Part shown: in pieces, positions 1-9,238 of the stretch
Layout: each line of letters starts with the position of its first letter
How positions within the stretch are numbered: position 1 is the first letter of the stretch
Origin: a virus
Taxonomy: Monodnaviria > Loebvirae > Hofneiviricota > Faserviricetes > Tubulavirales
Strand: one strand, 5' to 3'
Virus record (IMG/VR): IMGVR_UViG_2660238346_000023
DNA: 9,238 bases
Made by a program: the position numbers and the translations under genes
The notes under the pieces: generated by a model
What the model was told of the DNA's origin: nothing
Seen by the model: the letters and a program-made list of their open reading frames with translations, nothing else
Databases searched by the model: none

Positions 1-962
1 TGTGAATCATAAGAACTAACCGCACTGGTAATATCATCCTGAGAAACAGAAAAAGTATTATTTAAATCATTCACTGAACCCCATATTGTTTTTAACCAGC
101 CCAAAATACCATCAAGCCAGCCATTGTCATCGCCGGATGAGCCACCGGAGCCTGAACCTGAACAACCGCTACCGGATGAACCACCGGAGCCAGAACCTGA
201 ACCACCACTGCCGGATGAGCCGCCGGAACCCGAGCCGGAGCCACCGCTACCGGATGAACCACCGGAGCCAGAACCTGAACCACCACCGGAACTGCCGCCG
301 CCTGGGTTACCACCACCGGAACTGCCACCACCTGAGCTACCGCCATCCTCCTTACCATCGGAGAATGCAGGATCTACAGCAACTGGTTTCCAGTCGGCAG
401 TACAAACTGTATCATCATCGGGATTACAAATAAGAGGATTACCGGTTGCCTCATAAATACACCCCTGCACATTAACATAACGGGTCCCGTCATCACCTTT
501 ATAAACATCAGAAAAAGTCATACCATCAAGAACCGGACGAGAAAGACAAATCTCGTCAGTTGGCGGCTTATTATATTCAGGTGTCAAATCCCCCTCACCA
601 CCCTGAAAAGCAAGGGTGCAGGCTGTCCACTTTTGCTTGTCTGAATCCCAGACTTTATATGCTGACCACCGGGCACGGACAAAAGACCCGACAGTCGAAG
701 GTGCATTAACAGGCGTTGAAAGTGGCACACCACAATAATGAATTATTCCGGAACATGCGTCATAACTGCCCGAACCACAGAAAAGATGACCGGCCGCCCT
801 GGCTAATTTAATCGACGTCCCCGCGTCCGAATAATCTGTCCTGCAGGATGAATGGCCTGCACACTGAACAAGTGCATCCGGATTTTCTTTCTCTTCAGCG
901 AAAGAAAACGAGGAAAAGAACAAAAACAGAAGCGGAATAATAAAGTGAATCAAACAAAACAC
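1..962 (-). CDS. pIII-like minor coat/adsorption protein, copy 1; 3' end lies beyond the window start; interrupted by an in-frame TAA at 809..807 (possible pseudogene or sequencing error)
   Basis: Hand translation of the minus strand in one frame: AGGAG at 966..962 and GTG 962 or TTG 953, then a signal-peptide-like segment (FCLIHFIIPLLFLFFSSFSFA), then a Cys-rich N-domain, a Gly/Ser linker (about 130..345) and a C-domain (DDNGWLDGILGWLKTIWGSVNDLNN...) that matches copy 2. The only stop in this frame between 962 and position 1 is TAA at 809..807. Confidence 0.7.
   Translation of the reverse strand, partial: MFCLIHFIIPLLFLFFSSFSFAEEKENPDALVQCAGHSSCRTDYSDAGTSIKLARAAGHLFCGSGSYDACSGIIHYCGVPLSTPVNAPSTVGSFVRARWSAYKVWDSDKQKWTACTLAFQGGEGDLTPEYNKPPTDEICLSRPVLDGMTFSDVYKGDDGTRYVNVQGCIYEATGNPLICNPDDDTVCTADWKPVAVDPAFSDGKEDGGSSGGGSSGGGNPGGGSSGGGSGSGSGGSSGSGGSGSGSGGSSGSGGSGSGSGGSSGSGCSGSGSGGSSGDDNGWLDGILGWLKTIWGSVNDLNNTFSVSQDDITSAVSSYDS
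130..345 (-). repeat. Gly/Ser-rich linker-coding repeat inside pIII copy 1 (39/78-nt periodicity)
   Basis: Minus-strand translation is GGSSGGG.../SGSGSGGSSGSGG repeats; the plus strand reads as PEPEPE-type low-complexity ORFs. Confidence 0.8.
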
Positions 963-975
963 TCCTGGTATGATT

Positions 976-998
976 AAAAAAGCGCCCCGGAGGGCGCT
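976..998 (-). terminator. Putative rho-independent terminator downstream of the major coat gene
   Basis: Perfect 7-bp GC-rich stem (AGCGCCC / GGGCGCT, 981..987 and 992..998) with a 4-nt loop, followed on the minus strand by a T-run (980..976). Position matches the Ff arrangement (terminator after gVIII, just before gIII). Confidence 0.55.
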
Positions 999-1013
999 GT
1001 CGTTAAATAACTA

Positions 1014-1256
1014 TCAGGTTGCGCGGGAAAGGAAGCCTTTAATGATACCGATACCCAGACGGGCAGCGAGTGAAACACCAAGAACGGCAAATGCCGCCGT
1101 ACCTGCAATGCCAATCACACTGGTGAGCGCGTCACCAATTTCTTTAACAGTATCAGCAGTAATAAAAGACGGAACACTAACCGCAGCAGAAGCCGGAAGC
1201 GCAGCGACAGAAGCAGTCGTTGCCAGACCAGATAAAACAAGGGTTTTCAGTTTCAT
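1014..1256 (-). CDS. Major coat protein (pVIII-like), 80-aa precursor
   Basis: ATG at 1256 with an AAGAGGAA Shine-Dalgarno 5 nt upstream. Signal peptide ([24 protein letters not shown]), a short acidic mature N-terminus, a hydrophobic core and a basic C-terminus (KGFLSRAT). The ORF track's 1274 start is an upstream TTG. Confidence 0.7.
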
Positions 1257-1280
1257 ACAATTCCTCTTTGACAATTAAAA

Positions 1281-1451
1281 TTAATTAACAGCATCACTGA
1301 ACATCCGGCAGACCAGAGTGAAAATAACACCAAGACCAAAGCCAAGAAGCCAGCAGACAATCCAGACATAAAGAACGGACCAGTAAAGCTCCCCGTCCTG
1401 TACGCCAGAATTCAGTGCGGATAAAACACCGCTGAAATCAAATTCAGTCAT
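1281..1451 (-). CDS. Small hydrophobic virion/membrane protein (pVII/pIX-position), 56 aa
   Basis: ATG at 1451 (MTEFDFSGVLSALN...), one predicted transmembrane segment (VWIVCWLLGFGLGVIFTLV). Its start overlaps the stop of the upstream small gene (ATGACTGA). Confidence 0.45.
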   Translation of the reverse strand: MTEFDFSGVLSALNSGVQDGELYWSVLYVWIVCWLLGFGLGVIFTLVCRMFSDAVN

Positions 1452-6762: not shown

Positions 6763-6775
6763 AGTGTCCTCTGTC

Positions 6776-7978
6776 TTATTTACCATTCACATCAAACGAA
6801 AGCATTTTGTCAGTCAGCACATCCCCCTTTGATGCCGTTCCCGATGAGCCTGACCAGAACGTCACTTTTTCACCGTCAACATTCAGTTCCGTGGCGCTGC
6901 CGTTCCATGGCTGAAAAGCGGTATAACGTCGCACCTGACCCGCCGGACCCAGCAGCACAAAATAAGGACTTGCTCCCCTGACATATCCGGCAAGCCGCCA
7001 CTCCTTTGATACCGGAAGCACATCCGGTTTTTTCTGTCTCAGCTCTGATACAACCGTAGACGCAGGCAAAGGATGTGCAGGTGTCACGGTGCTTTCAGGG
7101 ACAGCGGCACTAACCTCCCGATCGCCGGAGAAATAATGTCGGGCAACGGCAATCATCGCGGTGACGAGGAAAAGAAAGGCAATCAGCTTGCCCCACGGCT
7201 TTTTCTGTGGGGTGGCCTTTTTTTCGGGTTGTTGAGATAACGGATTCATTGTTTTAAGTGTGCGCCCGGGCAAAACGGAATAAACAGCACGCATATCCAC
7301 AAAACAACCATTAAGCAGCTCCATTCCGTCAGAGAAAATGAAATTAGTGTCGTAAACGTTGTAATAATCCGCAGCCCTGATAATGATTTTATCTACGGGA
7401 CGACGTGCCGCGTGAATCGTGCCGTCATAAAGAAACGTACTGGCAGCCACGTAATGAGGAATAATCCCCCTTTTGCCTGATGCAACCCCTGTTTTTCCTG
7501 GTCTGAATAATTCCATCAGTGGCGTAATCACAGGAACACGTAATTCATCAAGACGGCGGCAGCGAATAATTTTAGCCCCCATCGCCTTAATTATCTGGGA
7601 ATCAATCATATCTTCATGCTGCGCAATCAGATAAACATCCCAGCCCAGCTTACGGGAATGTATCAGCCAGTCAATTAACGGTAATCTGTCCTTACGGGCA
7701 AAACCACGGGTATTCAGCCATGTCGCACACTCATCAAGAAATAACGCCCCGAAGCGTGTTTTTTCATTTTCAGGGCATCCACGACCAAGAAGCTCAAAGT
7801 CTTCAATGCGGGGCATAGCCGGAATAACCGTAACGGGGTTATCCGAACCTGAGGACATATATTCAGTGTTAAGCGGAAAATTTGCCGCAACCCGTAATCC
7901 ACGGCGATAATAAAGTGAGGCAAAATAAGCTGCGACAATACCTTTACCCTGCCCCAGATTACCCGTGATAACTGGCAT
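6776..7978 (-). CDS. Zot/pI-family assembly NTPase, 400 aa
   Basis: N-terminal P-loop ([13 protein letters not shown]), an internal transmembrane segment ([15 protein letters not shown]) and a C-terminal periplasmic region. Lies between pVI and the secretin, as in Ff phages. Confidence 0.9.
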
Positions 7979-7994
7979 AACTTACCCCGCAAAA

Positions 7995-8354
7995 TTACTT
8001 GCCAACATTAAGCCCATTTGATTTAAATAAATCATAAACCAATCGATACACTCTATCCTTATAAAGATATATGTATGAAATAAATTGAACATGGAGGATG
8101 ATATTAAAACAGTACTGAATATTTAAAGGAAGGTAACTGAATGCAACTACAATAACATCGAGTTTATTAACATCGGAGATTTGACGAATAATAAAATTGA
8201 CGGCAGATACAAGAGCATAATATGAAGTGTAGCAAAGACCAAGATAAGAAAGGAGCTTAGCCCATGCAACAGCTTTATCACCGATAACTCCTGCAATGAA
8301 ACGTAGTGATTTTAAAACAACATCAACAAAAAAAGCACCTAAAATGGCCCACAT
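7995..8354 (-). CDS. pVI-like minor coat protein, 119 aa
   Basis: Hydrophobic, with several transmembrane-like segments. Its ATG at 8354 shares one base with the TGA of the upstream pIII-like gene (TGATG), the usual gIII-gVI arrangement. Confidence 0.6.
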   Translation of the reverse strand: MWAILGAFFVDVVLKSLRFIAGVIGDKAVAWAKLLSYLGLCYTSYYALVSAVNFIIRQISDVNKLDVIVVAFSYLPLNIQYCFNIILHVQFISYIYLYKDRVYRLVYDLFKSNGLNVGK

Positions 8355-9142
8355 CAGAGTTTTACCTCACGTTCAAATAATGTACGGCGAGAAATAACAA
8401 AAACGCGTAACATGGTTATCATATAAATAGCATATTCAAGAACAGAACGAACATAATCGTCATAAGCTTTTGCAAAATGGCTTGTATCAATCTTGAAATT
8501 AATAGCGCCAATCAACGGAAGATCAAAGCTAAATTGTAAAATAAAAGGAAGAGCAGTTCCATTATTTGTATTTACCAGTTTGTCAATATTAACTGTAAGC
8601 CAATTGTTATTATCATGACTCTCACTTCCCTGTCCTGGCAAGTAATGCGAAAGCTCCCCTAAAGGGAAATCCCCATCAGGCAAAGAAGAAGCTATATTCT
8701 GACTAATATCTTTAATACCATTGTCCAGTGAATTTAATGCATTATTCATATCAGCCTGAGAAACAGAAAAAGCATTATTTAAATCATTCACTGACACCCA
8801 TATTGTTTTTAACCAGCCCAAAATACCATCAAGCCAGCCATTGTCATCGCCGGATGAGCCACCGGATCCTGAACCTGAACTACCGCTACCGGATGAACCG
8901 CCGGAGCCCGAGCCGGAGCCACCGCTACCGGATGAACCACCGGAGCCAGAACCTGAACCACCACTGCCGGATGAGCCGCCGGAACCCGAGCCGGAGCCAC
9001 CGCTACCGGATGAACCACCGGAGCCAGAACCTGAACCACCACTGCCGGATGAGCCGCCGGAACCCGAGCCGGAGCCACCGCTACCGGATGAACCACCGGA
9101 GCCAGAACCTGAACCACCACTGCCGGATGAGCCGCCAGACAA
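8354..9142 (-). CDS. pIII-like adsorption protein, copy 2: Gly/Ser linker plus C-terminal domain only; the N-terminal receptor-binding domain is missing or out of frame
   Basis: ORF begins at TTG 9142 directly with (SSGSGGSGSGSGG)n, followed by DDNGWLDGILGWLKTIW..., homologous to copy 1. An in-frame TAG lies at 9157..9155. A signal-peptide-like segment (..LAIPAVSHA-EFKGGFADIGIHYLV) sits in a different frame at 9143..9238. Confidence 0.75.
   Translation of the reverse strand: MSGGSSGSGGSGSGSGGSSGSGGSGSGSGGSSGSGGSGSGSGGSSGSGGSGSGSGGSSGSGGSGSGSGGSSGSGGSGSGSGGSSGSGSSGSGSGGSSGDDNGWLDGILGWLKTIWVSVNDLNNAFSVSQADMNNALNSLDNGIKDISQNIASSLPDGDFPLGELSHYLPGQGSESHDNNNWLTVNIDKLVNTNNGTALPFILQFSFDLPLIGAINFKIDTSHFAKAYDDYVRSVLEYAIYMITMLRVFVISRRTLFEREVKL
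8849..9139 (-). repeat. Gly/Ser linker-coding repeat inside pIII copy 2 (78-nt DNA unit, about 3.5 copies; 13-aa protein unit)
   Basis: Direct repetition of ccaccgctaccggatgaaccaccggagccagaacctgaaccaccactgccggatgagccgccggaacccgagccggag. Longer than the corresponding linker in copy 1. Confidence 0.85.
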
Positions 9143-9238
9143 GATAATGAATCCCTATATCAGCAAAACCGCCTTTAAATTCTGCATGGGATACTGCTGG
9201 TATCGCCAATACAGAAGAGAGTGTCAGAGTAAAAAGAT

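Follow-up and report, generated by a model that had tools for sequence, protein, structure and literature searches.

Two gene III alleles at the ends of one filamentous prophage contig of Escherichia coli: a probable mixed tandem array

Why would a single phage contig run twice through the same gene and meet a different version each time? The question is raised by IMG/VR virus record IMGVR_UViG_2660238346_000023, a stretch of 9,238 nucleotides (nt) that carries parts of gene III, the gene for the filamentous phage protein pIII, at both ends. This whole stretch is referred to here as the window. It corresponds, in reverse orientation, to the entire 9238-nt short-read contig CCCD01002317.1 from E. 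coli draft assembly GCA_000939215.1, as traced by an exact match of its pI protein. The window spans 1.06 units of an 8.7-kb inovirus prophage (unit size 8717-8756 nt), meaning that the contig wraps slightly past one turn. A first-pass annotation, made from the sequence alone, took the ends for two diverged inovirus units in tandem with different pIII genes. In our judgment, the best reading is a mixed tandem array of two phage variants that was collapsed by the assembler, with a chimeric end of host yfeN DNA. We consider this reading probable, and set out below the evidence on which it stands.

What kind of phage is involved? Its gene content is that expected of an integrase-less, CTX-type filamentous prophage (Inoviridae) of E. 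coli. The minus strand carries all genes except that for a regulator of 62 amino acids (aa). The order runs from this regulator (plus strand) through Rep, a 141-aa protein, two small open reading frames (ORFs) and an 80-aa coat-like protein to pIII. It continues at the other contig end with the pIII C-terminal domain, pVI, pI/Zot, a 339-nt repeat and the pIV secretin, giving the order pVIII-pIII-pVI-pI around gene III. The features that place a phage in the Inoviridae are present: a pI/Zot ATPase, a pIII followed by pVI, Rep, a genome size within 5-12 kb, putative small hydrophobic coat genes and genes on one strand. Specifically, pIII has a signal peptide, N-terminal receptor domains, a Gly-rich linker and a C-terminal anchor, with a pVI-like ORF directly downstream. 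A Pfam scan of the main ORFs found no integrase domain.

Two passes through gene III

Homologous sequence lies at both ends of the window, 8717 nt apart. A repeat search aligns 13-284 with 8730-9001 (272 nt, 86% identity), which is far above chance within 9.2 kb. In a base-by-base comparison of 41-170 with 8758-8887, 125 of the 130 positions are identical, with mismatches at 56, 78, 79, 150 and 164, and the longest exact run shared by both passes is 70 nt (80-149). Further out, 1-40 and 8718-8757 agree at 21 of 40 positions. Both copies are on the minus strand, and in both a Gly/Ser linker is followed by DDNGWLDGILGWLKTIW..., the start of a pIII-like C-terminal domain (C-domain). The linker is built from a 39-nt unit that is present in 3.9 copies on the left and 7.2-7.4 copies on the right.

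The left pass starts with a TTG codon at 953 and encodes a signal peptide, followed by N1/N2 receptor-binding domains that are rich in Cys and of the type found in strain 100416 (346..953, minus strand; Phage_Coat_A, PHROG and alignment). There are 10 Cys upstream of the linker, and this N-terminal domain (N-domain) matches Pfam Phage_Coat_A (E=3.8e-9) and PHROG families of virion and attachment proteins. The linker follows at 133..345 (minus strand), where repeat analysis finds the 3.9 copies of the 39-nt unit (133-284) and a 30-nt repeat (279-345). A substitution private to this pass, at 164, creates a Cys codon (163-165) in the otherwise pure Gly/Ser linker; the substitution could be genuine or an error of sequencing. 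The left pass ends with the first ~44 codons of the C-domain (1..132, minus strand), where it runs off the contig. This part is allele A, 100% identical to strain 600029, and is a diverged homologue of the right copy.

The right pass has a complete C-domain (8354..8849, minus strand; phrog_17820) that is allele B, the same type as in pIII of strain 100416, of a sister contig termed L006 and of a further relative, L012. Its long Gly/Ser linker (8850..9139, minus strand; repeat analysis), of a kind known from complete genomes, holds 2.7 copies of an exact 78-nt unit at 8928-9136. The copy is cut off upstream within the linker, without an N-domain or signal peptide. A 262-aa ORF for this truncated pIII (9142-8354) is a called coding sequence in the source contig, and an exact sequence look-up of it, with L or M as the first residue, returned no protein record. 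This ORF would not be expected to give a working pIII because the signal peptide and N-domain are missing.

Much of the first-pass description of these ends is borne out: the homology at this offset, the related yet diverged outermost 40 nt, the pIII-like linker and C-domain in both minus-strand translations, the Cys-rich N-domain of the left copy, the unequal number of linker repeats and an end of phage homology in the right copy near 9136 (it stops at 9135-9139). The near-identity of 41-170 likewise stands, with five mismatches rather than the three or so reported. It was also right that the ends are no simple duplication, since the two passes carry distinct alleles, A of strain 600029 and B of strain 100416. 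It was mistaken about where the real difference lies, which is not in the N-domain but in the C-domain allele with the adjoining pVI, and in linker length.

A cassette of C-domain and pVI separates alleles A and B

What distinguishes the two alleles? Over window 1-162, the left end agrees at every position with allele A, that of strain 600029 (100% identity), and the right copy aligns as allele B of the strain 100416 type. The B allele continues into a pVI-like minor coat protein of 119 aa (7995..8354, minus strand), assigned by gene position and a weak match to phrog_1944. When the A-type prophage of strain 600029 is set against the window, pVI is 27% identical while pI is 98% and pIV 99% identical. 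On this pattern, A and B differ as a cassette made up of the pIII C-domain and pVI only. The cassette was compared as window 7995-8849 versus L015 13308-14135, and pI and pIV outside it are 98-99% identical. In Ff phages, pIII and pVI jointly cap the virion tip, and by analogy a tip role may be assumed here. The cassette pattern suggests that co-adapted tip proteins may be exchanged as one unit.

More broadly, pIII is a mosaic in this phage group. It combines, in different ways, either of two types of N2 domain with a linker of variable length and either of two types of C-domain; N2 type 2 is found with both C-domains and N2 type 1 with B.

Host DNA at the right end

What lies beyond the right linker? 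Genome matches and translation identify 9135..9238 (minus strand) as the 5' end of host yfeN, which encodes a Tsx/OmpK-family outer-membrane channel; about codons 4-38 are present, including the signal peptide. Of 5426 E. coli genomes, 4072 contain a match to the segment, the best at 98% identity, and yfeN is there in its usual chromosomal context beside xapA. Its minus-strand reading is LFTLTLSSVLAIPAVSHAEFKGGFADIGIHYLVW, the YfeN signal peptide and first strand, after which the frame is lost on entering the linker. The junction lies within 9135-9140, inside the exact 78-nt repeat stretch, with CCAG as the only microhomology, and the contig ends 104 nt past it, 10 nt short of the yfeN start codon. 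The right copy had been credited with a different N-domain from about 9136. This is refuted: the DNA is out-of-frame host yfeN and not phage, including everything from 9143 onward, the part that the first-pass annotation had singled out as telling should it prove to be host DNA.

None of 5426 complete E. coli genomes has phage DNA next to yfeN, and the exact 30-nt yfeN-linker junction had 0 matches in the Joint Genome Institute (JGI) metagenomes. Where the window has yfeN, L006 has an intact 451-aa pIII. The yfeN piece is most likely a chimeric contig end because the true host junctions are at the phage attachment site (attP), because gene III is normal in L006 and because the junction is absent from complete genomes. 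Two yfeN mismatches near the junction were considered as sequencing errors, an idea that was dropped, since a natural variant of the linker (CCAGA) would match one of them and the other is a synonymous change.

A probable mixed tandem array

Can the two alleles sit side by side in one chromosome? There is a clear precedent. A 4.67-Mb contig of E. coli GCA_977066965.1 (L002/L003) holds an A+B+B array, in which an A-type unit (pIII of 461 aa, pI of 403 aa with 99% identity to pI of strain 600029) is followed by two B-type units (447-aa pIII, 119-aa pVI and a pI identical to that of the window).

A second line of evidence comes from the sister contig L006 (CDRO01002319.1, 9887 nt, GCA_001373195.1), which covers 1.13 units and also wraps round the unit. 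The comparison with the window covered the 646-nt attP region, where all 646 positions are identical, and the ends. In its first pass, L006 has the intact 451-aa pIII, with a variant N-domain and a B-type C-domain. In its second pass, it has the N-domain of the window and a short linker, then A-specific bases, before a poor end with N and a frameshift. The contig begins exactly where its two passes turn 100% identical (1-300 = 8757-9056), and the B-then-A order is the same as in the window. Judged by sequence, the two contigs would fit one array: attL, Rep to the gene III N-domain, linker, cassette B, gene I, gene IV and attP, then again Rep to the gene III N-domain, linker and cassette A, and onward. 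Two other short-read or metagenome contigs of this phage, L009 and L011, also start and end inside gene III. Assembly of this phage breaks recurrently at the gene III linker.

How would such an array produce the window? The two contig ends would be two passes through gene III of two different units. The upstream unit would carry the B cassette (pIII C-domain B and pVI-B) behind a long linker, and the downstream unit would carry a strain-100416-type N-domain, a short linker and an A-type C-domain. The assembler would have collapsed the remainder into one copy because the rest of the two units is nearly identical, and the upstream pass would stop in the linker because short reads cannot cross the exact 78-nt repeat. 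The 104 nt of host yfeN would have been attached at this repeat, most probably by way of a chimeric read or DNA fragment and not through a true chromosomal junction. The literature on Ypfphi, CTXphi and UPphi describes tandem as well as heterogeneous arrays, and also hybrid progeny (PMC4266046, PMC4246890, PMC7307601). The first-pass proposal of two diverged inovirus units in tandem is hence upheld as to the variants, which are attested natural alleles with an A+B+B precedent. It is not upheld as to linkage: the window alone, as 1.06 units in a complete short-read contig, is no proof of both variants in one array.

Alternative explanations

What weighs against a mixed array with a chimeric end? 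The contig index, above 2300, hints at a very fragmented or mixed assembly, and both the A/B linkage in one array and the copy number in the source strain are presumed from contig sequence. The left gene III combination, a type-1 N-domain with an A-type C-domain, was found in no complete genome examined, and this hybrid could be an assembler switch inside the linker repeat. At the yfeN end, a 4-nt microhomology is unfit for a k-mer graph mis-join and therefore calls for a chimeric molecule or a real event. The only clear difference from known yfeN alleles (9157) is synonymous, and the segment does not look error-ridden.

The alternative that survives best is a homogeneous B-type array, or a circular replicative form, together with a separate A-type phage at another locus or on a plasmid. 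The assembler would have switched between them in the shared linker or 70-nt run, making the left hybrid gene III unreal. The shared run and the repetitive linkers would permit such a switch, the hybrid combination is the one missing from complete genomes, and relatives are known at non-dif sites and on a large plasmid. However, L006 gives the same B-then-A path independently, pIII is naturally mosaic to the extent that type 2 occurs with both C-domains and type 1 with B, and an A+B+B array exists in a finished chromosome. We regard a switch between separate phages as unlikely, while giving it more weight than any of the explanations that follow.

Could the yfeN-linker junction instead be a real rearrangement, either an inversion between gene III of the dif prophage and yfeN or an illegitimate insertion of a phage fragment into yfeN? 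Illegitimate recombination typically leaves a short microhomology such as CCAG, for which an error in a k-mer graph gives no explanation, and the yfeN part has its single clear, synonymous difference from known alleles. On the K-12 map, yfeN and the prophage genes presumably lie in opposite orientation, and an inversion would give a head-to-tail join. The rearrangement, if true, would leave a truncated, unexpressed gene III. Against this, the junction is absent from the complete genomes and from the JGI metagenomes, the contig breaks off after 104 nt of host DNA that is otherwise unique, the near-identical L006 has an intact gene III at this place, and the true prophage-host junctions of the phage family are at attP rather than in gene III. 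Moreover, an inversion of ~0.9 Mb ending beside dif should be strongly counter-selected. A real rearrangement is accordingly quite doubtful in our view.

Less credible again is a DNA mixture of two E. coli strains, or cross-contamination, with one variant in each and the contig as a consensus path. A contig numbered 2317 points to an assembly in thousands of pieces, more than a clean E. coli isolate usually gives, and two alleles are indeed present. However, a second assembly, GCA_001373195.1, has the same structure, the contig interior contains no ambiguity codes, and heterogeneous arrays within one genome are documented. Finally, the notion that 9136-9238 is an alternative, unrelated N-domain of a second pIII can be given almost no credence: another frame does read as a signal peptide (LFTLTLSSVLAIPAVSHA) and could resemble the start of a secreted phage protein, but the segment is yfeN at 98% in ~1500 genomes, in its normal context beside xapA, is out of frame with the linker and is carried by no related phage compared.

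Probable integration at dif

Where would a mixed array reside? Folding and junction alignment place attP at 4632..4732, between gene IV and the regulator gene, as two inverted dif-like sites (4632-4660 and 4711-4732) around a GC-rich hairpin. On the coding strand, which is the packaged one, pairing of the arms gives a forked hairpin with a folding free energy of -40.9 kcal/mol (z = -10; 0/200 shuffles as stable). The canonical E. coli dif is not found in the window at <=3 mismatches, the divergence of the attP arms being greater than that.

The closest complete genome is that of strain 100416 (98.7% identity over 96% of the window), where hipA and the fimbrial genes ydeQ-ydeT flank about two copies arranged head to tail. 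A dif site with 1 mismatch adjoins this array (L001). Alignment of the inter-unit, dif-side and hipA-side junctions locates the host-phage boundaries of strain 100416 in the XerC-side ...ACATTATGCGCAC arm, corresponding to window 4717-4732. The inter-unit junction of this strain is the same sequence as that of the window save three positions. Arrays lie between hipA and ydeQ-ydeT in L001, L013 and L015, and L016 is seen on the hipA side only. Tandem arrays beside hipA also occur in strains E100341 (hipA to ydeQ-ydeT, at dif) and 2015C-4136CT1. What these junctions show for relatives is insertion at chromosomal dif through a crossover in the XerC-side arm that restores dif at one end; for the source strain the same insertion is presumed.

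In the window itself, the sequence is continuous from 5989 to 4045, that is from gene IV through attP and the regulator to Rep. This unbroken path has two possible sources, the junction of two adjacent units or a circular replicative form. Following the model established for CTXphi, XerCD of the host would insert the forked hairpin of the packaged strand at chromosomal dif, repeated insertion would build head-to-tail arrays, and the Rep nickase would copy new phage genomes across the boundary of adjacent units. By the same analogy, integration of the window phage may depend on XerC/XerD and be irreversible.

Other phage genes and non-coding elements

Upstream of gene III lie the putative coat genes and those of replication. 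An 80-aa hydrophobic protein (1014..1256, minus strand) occupies the position of the major coat protein pVIII and may be its counterpart, judging by position and sequence; relatives have a coding sequence of the same length, and neither Pfam nor PHROG gave a family match. Two small overlapping ORFs (1281..1584, minus strand; 56 and 46 aa in a RefSeq relative) are, by gene position, candidates for pVII and pIX. A 141-aa protein (1589..2014, minus strand) is in the position of the single-stranded DNA-binding protein of gene V and may correspond to it by gene order; it matches phrog_30648 (E=1e-95), a PHROG without known function. The Rep rolling-circle endonuclease, of 666 aa (2045..4045, minus strand), matches Pfam Phage_GPA (E=8e-49) and phrog_91, "nicking at origin". 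In a protein search, Rep is 30-31% identical to Rep of Vibrio phages fs2 and VFJ and to CTXphi RstA, with nothing closer.

Between Rep and the divergent regulator, a repeat search found iterated and palindromic GTGCAATTGTGCA motifs (4071..4150) that are a candidate operator or (+)-origin. The regulator, a small divergent protein of 62 aa (4193..4381, plus strand; phrog_2503, E=1e-28), holds the position of an rstR-like repressor and may act as one. In near-identical relatives the regulator module between attP and Rep is swapped, for a 108-aa HTH_19 protein in L002/L003 and for 66-aa and 82-aa proteins in L004/L005. Such swapping is reminiscent of the rstR immunity types of CTXphi.

On the other side of attP, the pIV secretin (402 aa; 4781..5989, minus strand) matches Pfam Secretin (E=9e-25) and phrog_1012, "protein IV of M13" (E=5e-114). 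The assembly ATPase pI, Zot-like and of 400 aa (6776..7978, minus strand), matches Pfam Zot and phrog_1675, "protein I of M13" (E=2e-50). A repeat search found a non-coding tandem repeat of 339 nt (6028..6762; 2.2 copies, 97%) in the interval that separates pI from the secretin gene. The number of copies varies, to judge by a distance between genes I and IV that is anywhere from 112 to 1126 nt in relatives. Every 339-nt unit opens with ~70 nt that are 85-90% identical to a conserved non-coding element of ~2000 small ColE1-type or mobilizable plasmids; the element lies where ColE1/pBR322 has its primosome-assembly (PriA) site. This part of the repeat is a possible complementary-strand origin. 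Single-stranded DNA folding of the ColE1-like part revealed no significant structure, and no Rfam family matched the window at E <= 0.1.

Relatives and known systems

How widespread is this phage? The region from Rep to the coat gene occurs in 48 of the 5426 complete E. coli genomes, with a median of 2 places per genome. The carriers are mostly human stool isolates, several of them from Gambia, Bangladesh and Japan. Some complete genomes (E. coli AST205, ZH48 and 2017.06.05CC) have 10-18 separate phage-matching places, which implies very long arrays or many scattered copies.

Not all relatives are at dif. A close relative in L012 (NZ_CM128606.1 3156988-3181491), at ~8848-17233, lies between ybiB and hcxB, away from dif. 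An IS110-family transposase gene directly adjoins its Rep, which suggests an alternative, transposase-driven integration route. A further family member, L017, is of A type and is integrated within 74749-87087 of OV141394.1, a 363-kb conjugative IncHI1B/IncFIB plasmid of Citrobacter youngae. Six places on this plasmid match the 339-nt repeat, and a plasmid of Proteus mirabilis matches as well.

Which described phages does it resemble? The first is CTXphi of Vibrio cholerae, a CTX-type integrative mobile element exploiting Xer (IMEX) and an integrase-less inovirus like the window phage, in which two inverted dif-like sites likewise form a forked hairpin on the packaged strand. As in relatives of the window phage, its boundaries are in the XerC arm beside dif, and its head-to-tail arrays include unlike units. 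A small divergent regulator lies upstream of Rep in both, and RstA is 31% identical to Rep. CTXphi arrays of unlike units yield hybrid progeny (PMC4246890, citing Davis & Waldor 2000). Unlike CTXphi, the window phage has an E. coli host and its own pIV secretin, lacks toxin genes and shows no detectable DNA similarity.

The second comparison is with Ypfphi of Yersinia pestis and CUS-1 of E. coli O18:K1:H7, both of which have been assigned to the CTX-type, Xer-exploiting class (PMC4246890). Ypfphi measures 8.7 kb, integrates at dif and forms 2-4 tandem copies of changing number (PMC4266046). Going by published descriptions, both phages resemble the window phage in size (~8.7 kb), module order, dif arrays and inverted XerC/XerD sites. 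They share 99% over 7.1 kb with each other. Scans with pI and Rep of species-representative genomes gave no match, and no K1 reference strain was recognized among the 48 carrier genomes. The window phage is probably a lineage separate from Ypfphi/CUS-1, of mostly diarrhoeal and stool isolates.

The third is UPphi of Enterobacterales, which forms dif-integrated tandem repeats in E. coli that short-read assembly collapses, including in one strain a tandem triple with one unlike copy; its g3p varies between isolates in the number of Gly-rich repeats (PMC7307601). UPphi differs from the window phage in being related to IKe and I2-2 (Lineavirus), and the two are unlike in gene content and in the type of attP. 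Homology of UPphi to Ypfphi is described for the replication genes (II and V) alone (PMC7307601). A megablast of the window against 50,697 phage records found no DNA-level match, and no published description of this E. coli lineage was found in the literature searched. To judge from these searches, the window appears to represent an undescribed E. coli inovirus lineage without a close relative in the phage collection.

Functional implications

What does the window mean for the biology of these phages? First, it calls for caution, since the supposed different N-domain is host DNA on a contig end in a repeat that short reads cannot resolve, and not a new adsorption protein. Second, the general principle is already established for CTXphi, Ypfphi and UPphi, which between them have tandem or heterogeneous arrays, hybrid progeny, g3p repeat variation and assembly collapse; further attention may be worthwhile for two points alone, the modular tip cassette and the repeat with its ColE1-like part. 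Third, and tentatively, the 39/78-nt linker repeat and the conserved start of gene I may be recombination joints that swap N-domains and the tip cassette between co-resident tandem prophages. The window would then hold a real, new combination of a type-1 N-domain and an A-type C-domain, from a mixed B-A array that would export hybrid virions as CTXphi arrays do. We think this proposal more apt to be wrong than right. Tip proteins that are shuffled as modules, together with mixed arrays at dif, would provide a natural setting for the formation of hybrid phages and for changes of host range.

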